This document shows positions 8,831 to 57,557 of a stretch of DNA of 64,000 bases, in pieces. The position numbers were made by a program, and so were the translations under genes. Source of the stretch: Candidatus Omnitrophota bacterium (GTDB lineage Bacteria > Ratteibacteria > UBA8468 > MWAK01); contig JAZDPL010000061.1 of assembly GCA_043797665.1 (NCBI GenBank), positions 1,065 through 65,064 of the forward strand, in the 5' to 3' direction. The stretch's first letter is position 1; each line of letters starts with the position of its first letter. The notes beneath the pieces are model-generated. The model saw only the letters and a program-made list of their open reading frames with translations. It was not told the DNA's origin and made no database searches.

Positions 8831-8882
8831 CCTAAACGCAGGCTAACCCCTGTCTCAAACATACAGGGGCAGGCGCCTGCGA

Positions 8883-11816
8883 CTACCGTTCAGATTCTTC
8901 GCTATCGCTCAGAATGACACCTTTTATTGTCCAGATGAGGGGACGCAATAAGCCGCGAGCGAAAGCACACCATAACGGCCGGGGGCGAATGAACTCGGCA
9001 ACCGGCGGCGAATGACGGTTGTAGAAACGGATAAATCTCCGGCCCCAATCCCTCTGCATTAAGAACCGTTCCCGGAATTGACGCAGAATCTCCACCTCTT
9101 TCGCTAAAGGAGTCCCGAAGGCCGCGGTGGCGATGAAACAGTATCCGGAGGGAAGAACGTCTTCGTCTGACTGAGAAGTATCATTGTCAAAAGTGACGGA
9201 TATGGTATGGTCAGAAGAGACCTCCGTAAAGGTATAACTGGTAGCCGTGTCGACCGAAGAATCATCTACCAAAATGTCCTCTATGTGATAACCGCTTGAT
9301 GGGGTAATCGCAAATGTGGATGTAGCATCAGCCGGGACCAAAACCGCTCCGGAAGGGCTGATTGAACCCCCATCGCCGGCAGTAGCGGCAATGGTATAAA
9401 GAGTAGTTCCGGGAGAAGAGAAAGAGACCGCATCAAGCCAGACCGTGTCGGAAACGGATGAACCGTCCGCATCTTTGATATATTCCCACTTAAGGGTGTG
9501 GCTGCCCGCATTCAACCAGATACAGTATGATGTCCAGTCAATATCTCCAACATAACCGCCGCACCATTCGGTCTGCTCCACGTCATCTACGTAAAACTTT
9601 ACGTAATCATAGCCCCATTCGGAAGAAACCTTAATAAAAAAGGAAAACACGTCCGCATCAGTAAGATAACCGGACCACTGGAGCCAGGTAGACTGGCTGT
9701 CGTCGATGTCTCCGGCCTGGGCAGACTGACTTCCCAGAACCGCATCGGTATTTGAAATGGACCAGGCTACATCCCCGCCGGTGGACCAGCCGGAGGAAAA
9801 ACTGGTACCCTCAAAATCTTCCAGAGGAGATGCCGGAACGTCAATGATACCGATGGCGTCCCAGGCAGCCCCAACGCTGTCCCCCCACACCCCGGTTGAA
9901 TCAAGGTCATCAGCCGCATTAACCCAGCAATCCCGCATCTGCTGGTAAGCGGTGGAGGAACCGGCCTCATCGTTATTGGCTTTGTAGGCAATCTGCCGGA
10001 CATTGGTTTCGCCGATGCCGGTAACGTCGTAGGGAAGGCCATCGTTGGTTCCGGTACCCCCTTCCGAAAGAAGGTAATAGACAAAGTTCTGGGGAGCATT
10101 GTTATAATGGATCCCGCCGTTATCTAACAAAAAATTTGTACCGCTGTTAAGCCAATACTGACCGTGGTACCGGGAAGGCTGTTCGTTTCCGCTGCCGACC
10201 GTTTCCGTGTTGGAGGGATTCCTCATATCGCGGAAGCCGGGACTTGACAACGAAGCGTCTTCGCCTATCAGCCAGTCTGCGCTGCCAGCGGTCTTATCCG
10301 GATAGACAGCCTGGCCGTCCGGCTGGGCGGCAAACTCCACGCTGACACCGATAATGTCGGAAAACGATTCGTTCAGGGCGCCGGTCTCGTCAACATAAAT
10401 CAACTGGGACGCATTATCGGTCCAGGCGTGGGCATACTCGTGCCCCATCAGGTCAAGAACCGTTAAAGGTCCGACATCTACTCCGTCTCCATCACCAAAA
10501 GAAAATTCTTGAAGTTCAGAATCCCAGTAGGCATTGGCGCCCACCGACGCATCGTGGACATTGACCTTGGCACAGGCTTTGAGGTCATCGTAACTCTTTC
10601 GGCCATAGACGGTATTAAAGTAACCCTGGATAGCGGAGAAGTTATTCCCCGCTGATATCTCGGTCCGGTCAGTGGTACCCCAGTCATTGGTAGCGGTCCG
10701 GTAGGCATAGGTACTGGTGTCGGTGTAAACGGACGAGTCGGTGGAAAGGTTATAGATATACCAGGGACCGGTATCGACCGCGCTCTGGTCATAGAGGTAC
10801 CAGATATCCGCATCGGCAGTCTCGTGCCACCCCAGAATAGTAACCTCGGTATCGGTATCGTCTTCTCCGGTAAGCCTGGAACCCTTGATAGCTCCGGGGA
10901 CACCACCGGCAGTAGGCGGTGCCACGTACTTCAGGTCGTTGTAACTCCGCAGGACCTTGCCGGTATTTGCGTCTACGTAATAGACCCATTTGCCTAAGTC
11001 CCCGGCACCATTATTATAGGAAAGAACATAGTGGTAGGCTAAATGGGGCTGATTGCCTATCGGAAAAATAACTAATTGCGGTTGTTGGATAATTTCAAGG
11101 TTTATTTTACCGGTGAGATGTTTATAGCCAACCCCGAGCGCCTGGGTTTCCGTAATACCGGGGATGATTGAAACCGCAATGTCCGGTGTATATCGTCCAT
11201 TGACCTGGTAGATGCTGCTTTTATCATTGATATGTACAATCAATTGAGAACCAACGACCGGAAGTCCCTGGTAGTACTGGTCAAGCCGGACGTGGAGGTA
11301 GCCTGTCCGGTCCGGCAAAATCTCTTTATGAAGTTTAAACTCCTGACCGGGGTTCTTCATCCGGTAGATATTCTTTATACCCTCCAGAAAGTTCAGGGAT
11401 GCTGAGGCCGGCTCACCGGAAACCGGCTGGTCAAAACCACGCAGAGAATTAGGTACGCCGTTTCCGCCCCAGTTCACTTTCAGTTTCGGATAAGAGGATA
11501 AGGCGGCTTGCTGGGAAGGAGTTACTACCCCCCCACCGCTGTCCTCCCCCCTTTCCAATCCGATGGAAAGGGAACCCGCCCCTGGGGGGGAAGGATTGGG
11601 GAGAGGGGAAATTTCAGAAGAGCCGGTATTCTTCTGCGCCTCTGCCGGAAGAAGCGCTTTATCCGGAGCCCGGAAGGCAAAAGCGTTTGTAACAGAAAGA
11701 AGAAAAACCGTAAGGAATACCCCGGCAAACCTTCGGTCTGCCACCCCTTTTACAAAAAGGGGAATGAATACCTCGGCGAACCGGATTTTTTTTCTAAATT
11801 CAATTTTCTTTTTCAT
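8883..11816 (-). CDS. secreted thermolysin-family (M4) zinc metalloprotease with C-terminal CFIATAAFG module
   Basis: 977 aa with a signal-like N-terminus. HEYAHAW (HExxH) plus GALNESFSDIIG match the M4 motif pair HExxH...GxxNExxSD. Extra beta-rich domains follow. The last ~85 aa are shared with the next two genes. Confidence 0.85.
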   Translation of the reverse strand: MKKKIEFRKKIRFAEVFIPLFVKGVADRRFAGVFLTVFLLSVTNAFAFRAPDKALLPAEAQKNTGSSEISPLPNPSPPGAGSLSIGLERGEDSGGGVVTPSQQAALSSYPKLKVNWGGNGVPNSLRGFDQPVSGEPASASLNFLEGIKNIYRMKNPGQEFKLHKEILPDRTGYLHVRLDQYYQGLPVVGSQLIVHINDKSSIYQVNGRYTPDIAVSIIPGITETQALGVGYKHLTGKINLEIIQQPQLVIFPIGNQPHLAYHYVLSYNNGAGDLGKWVYYVDANTGKVLRSYNDLKYVAPPTAGGVPGAIKGSRLTGEDDTDTEVTILGWHETADADIWYLYDQSAVDTGPWYIYNLSTDSSVYTDTSTYAYRTATNDWGTTDRTEISAGNNFSAIQGYFNTVYGRKSYDDLKACAKVNVHDASVGANAYWDSELQEFSFGDGDGVDVGPLTVLDLMGHEYAHAWTDNASQLIYVDETGALNESFSDIIGVSVEFAAQPDGQAVYPDKTAGSADWLIGEDASLSSPGFRDMRNPSNTETVGSGNEQPSRYHGQYWLNSGTNFLLDNGGIHYNNAPQNFVYYLLSEGGTGTNDGLPYDVTGIGETNVRQIAYKANNDEAGSSTAYQQMRDCWVNAADDLDSTGVWGDSVGAAWDAIGIIDVPASPLEDFEGTSFSSGWSTGGDVAWSISNTDAVLGSQSAQAGDIDDSQSTWLQWSGYLTDADVFSFFIKVSSEWGYDYVKFYVDDVEQTEWCGGYVGDIDWTSYCIWLNAGSHTLKWEYIKDADGSSVSDTVWLDAVSFSSPGTTLYTIAATAGDGGSISPSGAVLVPADATSTFAITPSSGYHIEDILVDDSSVDTATSYTFTEVSSDHTISVTFDNDTSQSDEDVLPSGYCFIATAAFGTPLAKEVEILRQFRERFLMQRDWGRRFIRFYNRHSPPVAEFIRPRPLWCAFARGLLRPLIWTIKGVILSDSEESER

Positions 11817-36036: not shown

Positions 36037-36627
36037 CTAACTTCCAATTGATATTTGATAATCCTTAATTGTATCTTGAAGAAGGTTTTTGATTTGCAGG
36101 AATTCTTCGTCACCAATAACTGGTTTTTTAAGGGTAACCGTACAATCTTCTCTTGTTAGATCAGCCCATCTGCCACAATGCCCCGTGGGTTTTATCTTTT
36201 CTTCTGGAAGTTCTTCGGTAGTTTCCCATATTCTAATCAAGAGTATTTTGCATTTTGTTTGATCGCTGTGCTCATTACACCATTTGTTTGGTGCTTCCGG
36301 TTTCCAAATGTCAAATAAACCATTATGACAGATTTTCTCCCATAACCCCATTTCGTTTTTTACGATATAGGTAGATTTCAGTAAAGCCACATATTTATAA
36401 GGAATTGAAAAAGAATCAGAATTCAAATTTCCACCAACTTCACTCATCCTAAACTTTCTATAATTGTGTTTCTGTAAAGTTATCAACTTAGGAAATCCCC
36501 CGTTAGCATTCAGATAAATAGCTTGATGTATAATTCTTCCATTCTTCTCAAACCCATTAATCATTGCTTTCGCATTTACTCTTTCCACCTTAAGACACCT
36601 GTTGTCTAAAACTATCTCTTGGTTCAT
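36037..36627 (-). CDS. 196-aa hypothetical protein
   Basis: ORF-track frame in AT-rich DNA. No motif recognised. Confidence 0.55.
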   Translation of the reverse strand: MNQEIVLDNRCLKVERVNAKAMINGFEKNGRIIHQAIYLNANGGFPKLITLQKHNYRKFRMSEVGGNLNSDSFSIPYKYVALLKSTYIVKNEMGLWEKICHNGLFDIWKPEAPNKWCNEHSDQTKCKILLIRIWETTEELPEEKIKPTGHCGRWADLTREDCTVTLKKPVIGDEEFLQIKNLLQDTIKDYQISIGS

Positions 36628-36854
36628 AAGATAATCAATCAGGTTGAAATTAGGGACAACTCCTCAGATTTTTACTGCCCCAAAAATCCACCAAAATTCC
36701 CTTAGGTAGCCCCAAAGGTATTCTATTTTGAACTCGGAAGTTATTATACCCCAGATTTTCACGGAAATACAAGCCATCTGTTCTGGGGCCCAGAGTTTTT
36801 CAACCATAGAATTCAATCTTCAAAATGCGTGATGAGATAGAAGCGTATACCGGC

Positions 36855-36935
36855 AAAGATTTTTTGAAAGTGGATAGGTACCACCCGAAGGTAGATTTAC
36901 GCCAGGACAATGCGTAGCTACGTAAGGATTGCAAG
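36855..36935 (+). repeat. type C element, partial copy (3' portion)
   Basis: GGTACCACCCGAAGGTAGATTTACGCCAGGACAATGCGTAGCTACGTAAGGATTGC aligns with the 3' ends of C1 and C3. Confidence 0.7.
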
Positions 36936-36974
36936 GGAAAGGGGGCTGCTTCACCACCATGAGGCAATTCATTA

Positions 36975-37073
36975 CCGGTCCCCGCTGACAAGCACAAAAA
37001 CCTTTCCCGGCAATAACCCCACCATGCTGTCGCAATTAGTTTGGACTGCAAACCTTGACCGGATTCTGCTGAC
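36975..37073 (+). repeat. type A element copy A2
   Basis: CCCGCTGACAAGCACAAAAACCTTTCCCGGCAATAACCCCACCATGCTGTCGCAATTAGTTT...CCTTGACCGGATTCTGCTGACC. Confidence 0.8.
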
Positions 37074-37345
37074 CCCCAGAATCCCTTCCCTGCGGGCAGG
37101 TCCCACCCACCATACCTCCCTCTCCCCTGAGTTGCTGTTCAGGCTGAACAGCAACTGCCGACACCGGGATGCCCTACCCCACCCCCCCAGTTTCGTTTTC
37201 TTCCTTTCTAACTTGCGATTGGCGGCGATATCTCCCCAGAACTGGTGCTTCTTCCATTACCTAAGTCAAAAAAATCAGCAGGAAGCGATTTTGAAAAGCA
37301 AATTCAGGTATAAGGTTCTATTATTGATTCCCTGCAATTGACCTT
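37074..37345 (+). repeat. type B element (~265 nt) copy B1 with a 12-bp hairpin at 37130-37156
   Basis: CCCCAGAATCCCTTCCC...CCCACCATACC...CCCCTGAGTTGCTGTTCAGGCTGAACAGCAACT...TTTCTAACTTGCGATTGGCGGCGATATCTCCCCAGAACTG...GGAAGCGATTTTGAAAAGCAAATT.AGGTATAAGG. About 90 percent alike with 57267-57530. Confidence 0.85.
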
Positions 37346-37404
37346 GAAATATATAGGCGTAGTCCTTCGCGGATTTGATAGAATGTACATCATACAGCCC
37401 TATC

Positions 37405-37495
37405 TGCTCCGGCAACTACCCCACCATCCAGTCGCAATTAGTCGCTGATAACGAATTGACTACCCAAAGAGAAGGTGGTATCCTTTAATGTGAGT
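37405..37495 (+). repeat. type A element copy A3 with promoter module
   Basis: CCCCACCATCCAGTCGCAATTAGT...TTGACTACCCAAAGAGAAGGTGGTATCCTTTAATGTG (TTGACT-17 nt-TATCCT). Confidence 0.8.
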
Positions 37496-37571
37496 AGATT
37501 CCACAGATTAGTAGAAACTTGACTATTTTTTCATTAATGTGCTACTATAATTAGAATTTCGAAATCTGCGT

Positions 37572-37835
37572 GTGAGAAAATCAAATCTTTTAACAATGGA
37601 CGATAATCTTCTGAATATTTGTAGAAATGGGGGGCATATGGGATTGTTGAACAGCAAAACCATTGATACGTCTAACGGCAAAGAAGATAATCTTCGCGAA
37701 CGTATCTCTCTTTGCTCCAGTAAGAACACTTTTCAGAGAAAAGGTGAATTTGTTAACGATGATGTCCCAAATTTTCTGAAAGACCTAGAGCGATTTCTTA
37801 AAAGATCCAAAATGAGTCACTTGAAAATTCCTTAA
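37572..37835 (+). CDS. small hypothetical ORF upstream of the 552-aa gene
   Basis: ORF-track frame starting at an alternative codon, with an internal ATG at codon 9. TTGACT (37519-37524) and TACTAT (37543-37548) promoter-like boxes lie upstream. Coding status is uncertain. Confidence 0.3.
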   Translation: MRKSNLLTMDDNLLNICRNGGHMGLLNSKTIDTSNGKEDNLRERISLCSSKNTFQRKGEFVNDDVPNFLKDLERFLKRSKMSHLKIP

Positions 37836-37860
37836 TACCTTCCAATTTTTAGAAACTTTA

Positions 37861-39519
37861 ATGCCCGCCAATTTGACTTCTGTTCGAACTGTAGAAAGTA
37901 CTAATAGTACATCTCTCCAATTAGTGGAGCAGCCATTTTCTTTCTTTAACTATTTGGAAAGCGTAGATGACCTTAGAGGACTTCTTCCACTTCATCGGAT
38001 TTGTAGTCAGGCTCGAAAACTAGGCGCCCAAACAATAATAACAGAGCATCTTCGTATATCAGACGACGTAAAAGAAGAAAATGCTGACATTACCAAAAGA
38101 TTTTCACGGTTCTCAGAAAGTCGAGTATGGCGGTTGAGTTTCTTTGAAGAAAAAATTTCTTCGTTGAAAGAACTAGATAAAAATTCCAACAAGGGTTTTA
38201 TCGGTTATGCTGTTGTTAAAACGGACATTCTTCCACCTCCACTGGGACGTAGGACACGTGTTCTTGAATCAGTCATACTTAAAAGCCAACATGAAAATAA
38301 TTACATAAGAAATGCACCTAAATGGAAATGTTGTGTGGCTGGTAGAACGTTCACAGTGGAAGGCTATTTATATGCACAGCAAAATGGAATAACCAATATT
38401 TGTGCACATGTTGCCCTCCGAACGGTTGCTGCGCGTTTCCACCAAAATGGCGATATATCCTATCGCGAAATTAATGACTTGCTCGGCATTAATCACATTT
38501 CCAAGAAGATTGGCTGGGGTGAGAATAAGGGTTGGAATGAAAACGGCGGATTGGAAACCTGGGAAATTTGTAAAGTGCTTGAAACAATTGGTGCAGAATG
38601 TCTTAGAGCAACTTATAAAAATCCTATAACAGAAGGGAATTCTGTCCCATTCCAAAAATTATTGTATGGAAGTATTGAATCAGGCTATCCTGCAATTCTA
38701 TGTTTTGCGATACAGAAAGAGCGTCATGCAATTCCTGTTTTTGGGCATACTTTCAATGAAGATATTTGGGTTCCCAGTGCCGAAGCTTTGTACTTTAAGG
38801 TTGGACCTGGAACTCGATATATACCAAGCGAACTTTGGACGAGTATGTTTATTACTCATGACGATAATTTTGGTTCAAACTTTTGCATTCCACGCCACTA
38901 TCTTTATACTCGATTAACATGTGGCCGTGATCAACAGTCGGAGTCTCCTTATCTATGCCCAATTCAACAGGAACGAGTTTTTTATGTAATAGCCACATTC
39001 CCTAAACTGGTAAAAGTTAATTCGGTTCAAGCCGAGGTTATAGCAATAGATTACCTTCGGAGCATCCTCGAAAAATTTAGCCGACCTACATCCGACCCAT
39101 GGATCAAGCGTTTAAGAATTTATGCAACTAATGGATCTATTGTGCTTCGACCTATTCTTATTAAGGGTTTAAAAGAATATGGGGAGCATTTGAGGAAGGT
39201 ACGCAACTGGGAAGGAGATAGGTTCAATAATGATGTCACAAAAACTTTCATTCAAAGCCCCGGGGATGACTTCTTTTGGATGGTGGAAATTTCAGTTCCT
39301 GAATTATTTTCCGCGAATAACCGCAAACTGGGGGAGATATTATTGAAAGCGCAGGTTCCCGTTGCTACAACAAGGGACTTTGGCAATTTTTTATTAACCC
39401 GCATTCCTGGCCATTTCGTTTTCTATGTAGGGGGTGAGATGTCTAATCCAGAGTATCGTTATGTCCCTTGTGGTTTAGACAACCACATTGAACTTTATAG
39501 GTGTGAAAAAAACTCCTGA
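37861..39519 (+). CDS. 552-aa C39-like (papain-fold) cysteine peptidase domain protein, paralog of 32209..33870
   Basis: YAQQNGITNICAHVALRTV (Q...C nucleophile region), HAIPVFGHTFNED and ITHDDNFG. Shared N-terminal motif HRICSQARKLG (vs HRLCSLARKM) and C-terminal FWMVEISVPELFSANNRKL (vs FWLSEITIPDLFTANKTKI). Confidence 0.55.
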   Translation: MPANLTSVRTVESTNSTSLQLVEQPFSFFNYLESVDDLRGLLPLHRICSQARKLGAQTIITEHLRISDDVKEENADITKRFSRFSESRVWRLSFFEEKISSLKELDKNSNKGFIGYAVVKTDILPPPLGRRTRVLESVILKSQHENNYIRNAPKWKCCVAGRTFTVEGYLYAQQNGITNICAHVALRTVAARFHQNGDISYREINDLLGINHISKKIGWGENKGWNENGGLETWEICKVLETIGAECLRATYKNPITEGNSVPFQKLLYGSIESGYPAILCFAIQKERHAIPVFGHTFNEDIWVPSAEALYFKVGPGTRYIPSELWTSMFITHDDNFGSNFCIPRHYLYTRLTCGRDQQSESPYLCPIQQERVFYVIATFPKLVKVNSVQAEVIAIDYLRSILEKFSRPTSDPWIKRLRIYATNGSIVLRPILIKGLKEYGEHLRKVRNWEGDRFNNDVTKTFIQSPGDDFFWMVEISVPELFSANNRKLGEILLKAQVPVATTRDFGNFLLTRIPGHFVFYVGGEMSNPEYRYVPCGLDNHIELYRCEKNS

Positions 39520-41062: not shown

Positions 41063-41300
41063 TATTTACTCTGGCATGCCCATTTCACCGAATCGGCAAG
41101 TTCGAGTCTGGTCCCGATAGAAAACATCGGGATGCCACGACAGCAATAGAACATACGTTAAACCGTGTCAGGGTGGCGGAGGGAGACGACGTTAGAACCT
41201 ACCTAGTGGACAATTTAGCCTTGCCCACCATTTTTAACTACCATACTCCACCCTATTTGCTTATTATTGTACCACATTTTACGTTCTTCCCTTGACTGGC

Positions 41301-41652
41301 CCCCAAAAACCCTTCCCTGTGGTTAGGTCACACCCACCATACCTACTTTCCTGAATTACTGTTGAGGCTCAACAGTAACTTATGCCAAACCCTCTCAGAG
41401 AACAACCTCTCCCGTGCCCTTTACCACCACTACCCCCTGGAACAACGTTCACAAGTTCACCAAAGCGACAGAAACCAGTGGCTGATAGTGGAATGCCTTA
41501 CCCACCATGCAATTAATTTGGCTTTAGGATGTTGCCCCTGGAACGTAGGAAGAAGTACAAGCTGGGAGGAAGAAACTTTACTCAAACAAACTACCTGGGC
41601 CAGTATCAAACCGCAAACTTGAAATCAGGTGATTGTGTCCATTGAAATCTGA
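41301..41652 (+). repeat. diverged type B copy (B4, hairpin 41356-41378) followed by type D element (D1, ~41546-41652)
   Basis: CCCCAAAAACCCTTCCCTGTGG...CACCCACCATACCTAC...GAATTACTGTTGAGGCTCAACAGTAACT... The D part AGGAAGAAGTACAAGCTGGGAGG...GAAATCAGGTGATTGTGTCCATTGAAATC aligns with 54946-55050. Confidence 0.75.
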
Positions 41653-52147: not shown

Positions 52148-52192
52148 TTACATATCCCACTTTACTGTCCACTATCTTTTACCCTGCCTGGT

Positions 52193-52470
52193 CCCCAGAA
52201 TCCCTTCCCCGCGCTCAGGTCCTACCCACCATACCTACTCTCCCCTGAGTAACTGTTGCATGCAACGGTTACTACTGACAATGTGGTGCCCTACCTCACC
52301 ACCCAGTTTCAATTCCTTCCTTTCTAATTTGCGATTTGCGAAGATATCACCCCAGAATTGATATTCTTCCCTCACCCAATCTCCAAAAATCCGTAAGAAG
52401 CGATTTTGGAGGTTGATTTAGCAGTTCTTCCCAACCACCATCCAAACGCAATTAATTCCGTTGTCGTTTA
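52193..52470 (+). repeat. type B copy B2 (hairpin 52248-52273) fused to a short type A core (A5, CGCAATTAATT at 52447-52457)
   Basis: CCCCAGAATCCCTTCCCCGCGCTCAGGTCCTACCCACCATACCTAC...GAGTAACTGTTGCATGCAACGGTTACT...TTTCTAATTTGCGATTTGCGAAGATATCACCCCAGAATTG... Confidence 0.8.
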
Positions 52471-57189: not shown

Positions 57190-57266
57190 CGTTCCGCTCA
57201 AGGTAACTTACCCCACCTCCCAGCCGCAATTTAGTTTCAATATCCCTTGACCGGATTCTGCTGGAC
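57190..57266 (+). repeat. type A element copy A8 (degenerate core CAGCCGCAATTTAGT)
   Basis: ...TACCCCACCTCCCAGCCGCAATTTAGTTTC...CCCTTGACCGGATTCTGCTGGAC, as at the A2/B1 junction. Confidence 0.7.
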
Positions 57267-57530
57267 CCCAGAATCCCTTCCCCGCGCTCAGGTTCCCCCA
57301 CCATACCGACTCTCCCCTGAGTTGCTGTTGAGGTCAACAGCAACTTCCGACACCGGGATGCCCTACCCCACCCCCCAGTCTCAATTTCTTCCTTTCTAAT
57401 TTGCGATTGGCGGCGATATCTCCCCAGAACTGATGTTCTCCCTCACCTAACTCCCCAGAAACCCGTAGGAAGCGATTTTGAAAAGCAAATTAAGGTATAA
57501 GGTTTCGTTATTGATTGCCTGCAATCTCTT
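57267..57530 (+). repeat. type B copy B3 (hairpin 57320-57345)
   Basis: About 90 percent alike with B1. The hairpin reads AGTTGCTGTTGA-GG-TCAACAGCAACT. Confidence 0.85.
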
Positions 57531-57557
57531 GACCGTATTCTGACGGAGTGGTAACAT
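57529..57557 (+). promoter_or_regulatory. candidate sigma70-type promoter for the Hsp70 operon
   Basis: TTGACC (57529-57534)-17 nt-TAACAT (57552-57557). The first ATG of the operon is 13 nt after the -10 box, implying a very short leader without an SD. Confidence 0.45.

Follow-up and report, generated by a model that had tools for sequence, protein, structure and literature searches.

Intergenic palindromes at the joints of mosaic spacers in the accessory-gene regions of a Candidatus Omnitrophota bacterium

The window analyzed here, a stretch of 64,000 nucleotides, is part of contig C52; the assembly comprises 2.69 Mb in 93 contigs and is 86% complete (a window coordinate equals the C52 coordinate minus 1064). 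Four copies of an intergenic element, type B, occur in it on the + strand, each made up of a 5′ module, a short palindrome and a 3′ module of one of two kinds, alpha or beta. In B1, the C-rich 5′ module (37053–37129; CCCCAGAATCCCTTCCC..CAGGTCCCACCCACCATACC..CTCTCCCCTG) contains a promoter-like box, TTGACC-16-CAGAAT, at 37055–37082, and is followed by the palindrome at 37130–37156 (AGTTGCTGTTCAG-G-CTGAACAGCAACT), whose 12-bp stem and 3-nt loop fold in isolation at −17.3 kcal/mol (z = −3.7), and by an alpha module (37157–37345) with the blocks TTTCTAACTTGCGATTGGCG and GGAAGCGATTTTGAAAAGCAAATT. In B4, the 5′ module (41280–41353) precedes a palindrome at 41354–41380 (AATTACTGTTGAG-G-CTCAACAGTAACT), of which positions 41356–41378 form only the inner hairpin; it has one A.C mismatch on the + strand, folds in isolation at −11 kcal/mol and is followed by a beta module (41381–41520; TATGCCAAACCCTCTCAGAGAACAACC...GGAACAACGTTCACAAG...CTGATAGTGGAATGCCTTACC) that is common to copies on contigs C61 and C64. 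The 5′ module of B2 (52172–52247) is without a promoter-like box, and its palindrome (52248–52273; AGTAACTGTTGCA/TGCAACGGTTACT), which has one T.G wobble and is altered on both arms at positions 4, 5 and 12, folds in isolation at −13.5 kcal/mol and adjoins an alpha module truncated at its 3′ end (52274–52410). B3 consists of a 5′ module (57245–57319) with the same TTGACC-16-CAGAAT box (57247–57274), a palindrome (57320–57345; AGTTGCTGTTGA-GG-TCAACAGCAACT) that folds in isolation at −17.3 kcal/mol (z = −4.35) and an alpha module (57346–57557) ending in a second promoter-like box, TTGACC-17-TAACAT (57529–57557), 14 nt past which the next gene starts (57571).

All four hairpins had been described in an earlier sequence-only reading of the window, and they are present at its coordinates and with the letters that it quoted, including the single G-U pair of B2, which is the T.G wobble mentioned above. 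A MAFFT alignment of the four elements places the hairpins in identical columns, in agreement with the assertion that they occupy the same relative position. The conserved flanking blocks were also recovered, CCCACCATACC in all four copies and both TTTCTAAYTTGCGATTKGCG and GGAAGCGATTTTGAAAAGCAAATT in B1 and B3, the latter block being degraded in B2. As a separate observation, the widespread ‘X box’ (GTCGCAATTAG) and a block of the alpha module (CTAAYTTGCGAT) are inverted repeats of one another (37030–37041 with 37208–37220 in B1; 57222–57233 with 57397–57409 in B3), flanking the 5′ module and hairpin on both sides in these two copies; the pair may represent a common protein-binding motif or a long-range helix.

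When the whole assembly was searched for copies by BLAST, nhmmer, regular expressions and a covariance model, the family proved to be larger than four. About 13 copies of a palindrome with the pattern AGTTRCTGTT-(6/7 nt)-AACAGYAACT occur in the genome, each 26–27 bases long and all intergenic. Ten of these follow the 5′ module, a C-rich sequence of ~60–115 nt with the consensus CAGGTCCCACCCACCATACCTACTCTCCCCTG: B1–B4, C44:21384, C61:71501, C64:4176, C64:4474, C64:5047 and C52:74198. The other three are stand-alone palindromes (C52:72824, C52:74346 and C52:74446), the second of which is a divergent variant spotted by eye, and two additional copies are broken off within the left arm (C78:14766–14844; C40:~748–780). 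The alpha module is also found without a hairpin on C17, C64 and C40. A covariance model (R1) comprising the 5′ module plus hairpin, with which the genome's own copies score up to 90 bits, found no match in 40 relatives, the same genus included, nor in the other 64 of the 65 genomes of the phylum; one fixed 22-nt pattern of the 5′ module gave chance matches only (14–21 bits) in genome, viral and metagenome contig collections. In the collections searched, the palindrome family is, as judged from these comparisons, species-specific and confined to one genome. Among public sequencing runs, none of RNA contained this region, and the single DNA run that turned up does not extend over it. A half palindrome (AGTTGCTGTTTAGCC, then unrelated sequence) was also seen ~80 nt or less from a contig end at C27:73 and C75:60, where the two contigs are mutually reverse complementary, and the assembly may have broken there at a further copy.

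The module-bearing copies are placed in a characteristic manner relative to genes. About nine of the ten point in the same direction as the next downstream gene, 180–420 nt ahead of its start, and four to six lie 20–140 nt past the stop of a co-directional gene; B4 alone is antisense to the genes on both of its sides, and B1 and C61 are without a co-directional upstream gene. The neighboring genes are accessory and many are defence-like, encoding type I R-M, GmrSD, ankyrin, TPR, PIN, macro domain, DUF6804 and C39-like peptidase proteins. In B1 and B3, promoter-like boxes, which are consensus matches only, are located ~50 nt upstream of the hairpin and again between the hairpin and the gene, and inspection of C44 by eye revealed the same upstream box as well as a TTGACA...TATACT box after the hairpin, likewise as consensus matches only. 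Scanning of B2 found no box on either side of the hairpin, and no upstream box was seen by eye in B4, C61 and C78; counting altered versions as well, the upstream box is absent or altered in B2, B4, C61, C64b/c and C78. The first ~150 nt of the element are C-rich and G-poor (C minus G of +0.18 to +0.32 in 78-nt windows), and Rho is encoded in the same genome.

Is the palindrome maintained? Across 10 copies and 12 pairs, 95% of the cells pair, four pairs are changed on both sides and none of 500 shuffles matches the covariation score; when the outer 10 pairs are counted in 13 copies, 96.9% of the cells pair, three pairs are double-changed and one of 500 shuffles reaches the score, these shuffle counts not being probabilities, since every copy is a paralogue within one genome. 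Sliding the partner columns by one to three columns on the 3′ side lowers pairing to 16–52%, and for the hairpins in isolation the folding energies range from −8 to −17 kcal/mol (z from −2.3 to −4.4). In alignment A5 we counted by eye about seven independent double changes versus ~8–12 one-sided ones; the former comprise G-C to A-T at position 5, G-C to T-A and also to C-G at position 11, changes at positions 4 and 12 in B2, and two in the C52:74346 variant, at positions 7 and 13. An exact complementary second change at the partner base is rare by chance, and therefore something preserves the palindrome even when paralogy is allowed for; the high proportion of paired cells, the changes on both arms and the rarity of shuffles that score as high together show that palindromy is actively maintained. 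The proposal that the arms covary across copies is thus borne out, while the accompanying proposal of selection on structure stands only in part, as self-complementarity is kept beyond sequence alone but RNA as the selected form is unsupported. Within the limits of one genome, the covariation has statistical support, and it is reasonable to conclude that a structure is maintained; this structure is a single stem.

Several readings of the element at the RNA or protein level were tried and rejected. As a structured RNA, the whole type B element has only its 12-bp stem as a stable part: shuffled versions of the 226-nt B1 element fold just as well on either strand (z = −0.33 on +, 0.03 on −), and RNAalifold applied to B1–B3 detected covariation in the known stem only and no further covarying helix. 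Rfam returned zero matches at E ≤ 1 across 36600–37900, its only matches in the window being three weak tRNA-like ones elsewhere. Coding in a consistent frame, which would have spoken against a structural interpretation, did not materialize, as the copies differ by one-base indels that disrupt every frame, and stops occur in most frames of each copy; the 143-aa + strand ORF that runs over B1 (36910–37341) is an artefact of stop-poor C-rich sequence, its frame being lost in B2 and B3. A G-quadruplex or i-motif in the C-rich module was also discarded, given that four C-runs are found in only five of ten copies and are separated by long loops.

The hairpin does not qualify as a canonical intrinsic terminator, since it lacks a T-tract (the 3′ tails are GCCGACACC, TCCGACACC, ACTGACAAT and TATGCCAAA), and a terminator scan of three regions gave no terminator-like site at the hairpin. 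However, canonical intrinsic terminators seem to be rare in this organism: of the strong hairpins (≤ −10 kcal/mol) located no more than 90 nt downstream of ORFs of at least 250 aa, merely 29 of 388 are followed by at least five T in nine bases, which makes the absence of a U-tract uninformative in this genome.

The sharpest signal comes from an all-against-all comparison of the copies with 300–400 nt of flank each. With positions counted from the palindrome's first base, most pairwise homologies stop at +24 to +27, where the palindrome itself ends; past this point at least five mutually unrelated 3′ contexts are found: alpha (B1, B2, B3), beta (B4, C61, C64b, C64c) and three that are unique (C44, C64a, C52x). 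The 5′ boundary of homology is variable (−114 to −19). The end of beta (CTGACAATGNNATGCCCTACC) equals the start of alpha, and the alpha form therefore looks like a deletion of a ~100-nt beta segment. The palindrome itself is also reshuffled, since C64b combines an A-type left arm with a G/T-type right arm, C64c has the reverse and C61 is reassorted too; furthermore, relative to the 5′ module, the loop triplet reads GGC in B1, B4 and C61 and GCC in C44, C64b and C64c, and five copies have a center of 6 nt, the other eight one of 7 nt. Non-canonical pairs are divided between the strands, with four G.U-type wobbles on the + strand and three A.C pairs, which are wobbles on the − strand. Neither the wobbles, nor the loop flip, nor the arm reassortment points to a particular RNA strand; all three are the behavior of DNA prone to hairpins or cruciforms, and arm reassortment and loop flips are typical of cruciform- or hairpin-mediated DNA events. 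Taken together, the breakpoint at the end of the palindrome, the flipped loop and the strand-neutral wobbles suggest a stem-loop at the level of DNA, placed where recombination joins sequences, and the breakpoints show the putative stem-loop as a preferred DNA joint at which spacer modules are swapped, truncated and rejoined.

The beta copies carry ATGCCAAACCC... after the hairpin, which raised the suspicion that the hairpin is the 5′ UTR of a decayed IS1182-family insertion sequence. On C64, an intact 72-aa tail of an IS1182-family transposase (C64:4560–4775, L043:4560–4775; Pfam DDE_Tnp_1_6, tblastn) is indeed fused directly to the beta module after the B hairpin, the remainder of the insertion sequence being absent from the assembly. 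Nevertheless, this candidate was rejected: the nearest full-length transposases have unrelated N-termini (P0003 is 72% identical over the tail), and the IS ends at six loci have nothing in common with the B, beta or X modules. Since the transposase homology begins where C64b departs from the other beta copies, the C64 tail is the scar of an insertion sequence beside a B copy.

Among the closest known systems are the promoter-early stem-loops (PeSLs) of the T4-type phages RB49 and phi1, cassettes of a promoter and a stem-loop that occur in hyperplastic regions, act as transcription terminators and serve the shuffling of modules (Arbiol et al., 2010; PMC2839356). Like PeSLs, the type B elements are repeated intergenic units of short length with a stable stem-loop for which a U-tract is dispensable, and in B1, B3 and, by eye, C44 consensus matches to sigma-70-like boxes accompany the stem-loop; type B elements and PeSLs also share two features that we tested for and found here, namely location in plastic regions before unrelated accessory genes and use as points of module exchange. 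The differences are not trivial. PeSLs are ~50–100 nt long, with the stem-loop inside or beside the promoter, number ~50 per phage genome and have measured activities, whereas type B elements are chromosomal or island-borne, mosaic and up to ~290 nt long, with the stem 50 bp after one promoter-like box and 60–250 bp before the next.

By analogy with PeSLs, we tentatively propose, at somewhat less than even confidence, that the palindrome is the boundary stem-loop of reusable promoter or insulator spacers. The hairpin, which is kept foldable, is the fixed 3′ end of a C-rich spacer module, and such modules are parts of mosaic, putatively promoter-bearing spacers preceding accessory or island genes, in which the stem-loop would act as a boundary element. 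RNA reading through from upstream might meet the C-rich, G-poor leader and the stable stem and stop before the promoter of the next gene, either by Rho loading, by a hairpin that protects the 3′ end, or by both, so that the element could serve as a terminator or insulator. Copies would spread together with their spacers by recombination and duplication, without a dedicated transposase. The grounds for the boundary reading are the foldable palindrome, its position at a homology joint, the two copies broken off in the left arm, the reassorted arms and flipped loop, the C-rich leader oriented toward the downstream gene with a promoter-like box in between in B1, B3 and C44, the copies that follow shortly after a co-directional gene, and the presence of a C>G bubble and of Rho in the same genome. 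Several facts speak against it, as B1 and C61 have no upstream co-directional gene to insulate, B4 is antisense to both neighbors, the upstream box is missing from B2, B4, C61 and C78, and three to four palindromes that lack the C-rich module are found where an integrative element has its regulatory region, a stand-alone placement that would better suit an operator or a recombination site.

That integrative element, as we read it, occupies ~67–80.5 kb of C52, outside the window. Its genes form two divergent sets, one for a trypsin-like peptidase, a UvrD-like helicase, RadC and a PD-(D/E)XK nuclease, the other, on the opposite strand, for a 427-aa protein, a Toprim/DUF5906 primase-helicase and a tyrosine integrase. 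Four palindromes are located in the 2.3 kb of non-coding DNA that separates the two sets, three of them within 280 bp upstream of the element's first + strand gene. Two of the four, at C52:72824–72849 and C52:74198–74223 (L042:7825–7850 and 9199–9224), form an inverted pair with 100% complementarity along all 26 nt, down to the asymmetric center (GG versus CC), and the 1348 bp between them could be an invertible segment. The same region has iteron-like direct repeats (GGTACTACTTCTSTCTGCTATGCTRATGT, two copies ~80 nt apart) at C52:73290–73400 (L042:8290–8400), which may mark a replication origin.

These features invite the reading of the palindrome as the crossover site of a site-specific recombinase, with inverted arms around a center (12-2-12 or 10-6/7-10) at which an island enzyme would delete, invert and shuffle segments, for instance the 1.35-kb regulatory one. 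The exact coincidence of homology breaks with the palindrome and the reassorted arm types of C64b and C64c would be accounted for, as would the perfect inverted pair in an element with a tyrosine integrase and a primase-helicase and the position of the truncated C78 copy, 1.4 kb from a tyrosine-recombinase fragment. The resemblance extends to the sites hix/gix, dif and loxP, in that five copies are 26 bp long and can be read as 12-2-12, all can be read as 10-bp arms around a 6–7-bp center and one perfect inverted pair flanks 1.35 kb. Unlike in hix, however, the length of the center is inconstant, only five of 13 copies fitting while the rest are 27 bp, and a single enzyme is normally intolerant of such variation. 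Moreover, we found no invertase gene: the only two serine recombinases of the assembly are large and lie on other contigs, and no recombinase is encoded within the cassette array. The fixed orientation of the modules toward downstream genes is also left unexplained, and on balance we consider a recombinase site unlikely. Still less probable is the more specific version of this idea, in which the palindromes are crossover sites of an undescribed shufflon-like system whose island-encoded recombinase would invert the 1.35-kb control segment of its own integrative element and also delete, invert or swap the promoter-and-gene cassettes that lie between B1, B4, B2 and B3. The attC sites of integrons, which are likewise recombination-associated hairpins between promoter-poor cassettes with structure conserved above sequence, were rejected as a model, since by eye there are no R″/L″-L′/R′ boxes, no RYYYAAC/GTTRRRY core and no extrahelical bases, and the array has only four sites for ~15 genes with no IntI beside it, the nearest Phage_integrase gene (C52:79786) being outside the window.

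A second reading, of the same low probability, is that of a selfish, REP- or MITE-like mobile hairpin without host function that is copied as single-stranded DNA by a hairpin-recognizing transposase, in which case palindromy would persist because only foldable copies are mobilized. REP and REPIN elements with their RAYT transposases (Bertels and Rainey, 2011; PMC3116915, PMC3337134) resemble the present family as imperfect extragenic palindromes of 20–40 bp that are species-specific and keep their stem via paired changes. The short, extragenic and imperfect palindromes studied here, restricted to one species and found in several unrelated contexts, would fit this description, and other REP-like families occur in the same genome together with two Y1-transposase-like (Y1_Tnp) genes. 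But REPs typically number tens to hundreds per genome, usually arranged in inverted doublets (REPINs), and are found on both sides of a RAYT gene cognate to them, whereas the family amounts to ~13 palindromes plus two truncated ones in an 86% complete genome, mostly single, and most of them come with a single type of 5′ module in a uniform orientation. REPIN doublets are absent, the sole inverted pair being the one 1348 bp apart, and no target-site signature was seen. No palindrome flanks a cognate RAYT gene either, the Y1_Tnp matches being limited to C3 and C47, contigs on which the covariance model detects no palindrome.

The clustering of four sites in the 2.3-kb region of the integrative element, three of them close to the first + strand gene, would also be compatible with an operator for a dimeric regulator that co-regulates island genes and is perhaps encoded by the integrative element. 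Five copies (TACTGT/TGCTGT-N8-ACAGTA/ACAGCA) even have the geometry of a LexA box, the consensus used here being the gamma-proteobacterial one. We nonetheless regard an operator as improbable, as the half-site spacing varies by 1 bp (N8 in five copies, N9 in eight), the site in the B modules lies ~50 bp past one promoter-like box and 60–250 bp before the next and overlaps neither, and it is not explained why unrelated sequence should begin right at the edge of the site. The specific case of a LexA box was rejected on account of the inconstant spacing and because the other genomic CTGT-N8/9-ACAG matches are either isolated or members of another repeat family, with no SOS-type regulon bearing the motif. 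This other family is a separate, abundant set of palindromes with the core CCTGT-N9-ACAGG, often GTCATTCCTGT...ACAGGAATCC, which occurs at 8850–8870 of the window (C52:9914) and in ~45 other places in the genome and accounts for a threefold genomic excess of CTGT-N9-ACAG.

About as improbable is a neutral origin of the paired changes. Template switching during replication can generate the same ‘compensatory’ pattern in the absence of selection (PMC7202029), and a functionless, decaying inverted repeat that is re-perfected in this way would display exactly such paired changes by quasipalindrome correction; the flipped loop triplet, the strand-neutral wobbles and the youth of a family confined to one genome are all consistent with it. 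Yet no part of the module is better conserved than the palindrome, which persists in five or more different contexts; its stems stay at 10–13 bp in spite of 15–25% divergence of the flanks, and the orientation bias toward downstream genes suggests use. Least likely, and only marginally credible, is a multi-copy sRNA of ~75–80 nt that starts at the TTGACC-16-CAGAAT box, presents UCCC seeds against Shine-Dalgarno sequences and ends at the hairpin: the box is suitably distant in B1, B3 and C44, the unstructured leader has four to five UCCC motifs and homology stops at the hairpin as it would at a transcript 3′ end, but the box is absent or altered in the other copies named above, there is no U-tract and the A.C mismatches of B4, C64b and C64c sit on the supposed RNA strand.

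Taken as a whole, the element can be placed among the kinds of stem-loop repeat already known from intergenic DNA, and its novelty is modest; it looks like a boundary stem-loop of the REP or PeSL type, not like a new structured RNA. The hairpin alone is an ordinary object, a species-specific intergenic palindrome that is kept foldable; its value lies in being a base-exact marker of the joints between mosaic spacers in an accessory-gene array. If the palindromes were recombinase sites, this array would stand as a new system of programmed variation in a phylum that has hardly been studied, and a shufflon-like arrangement, if true, would mean programmed variation of an accessory and defence gene array in a candidate-phylum bacterium. 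According to the boundary reading that we favor, the spacers would be reusable ‘expression sockets’ that recombine at a stem-loop, an idea that now becomes testable in a chromosome, beyond the T4-type phages.
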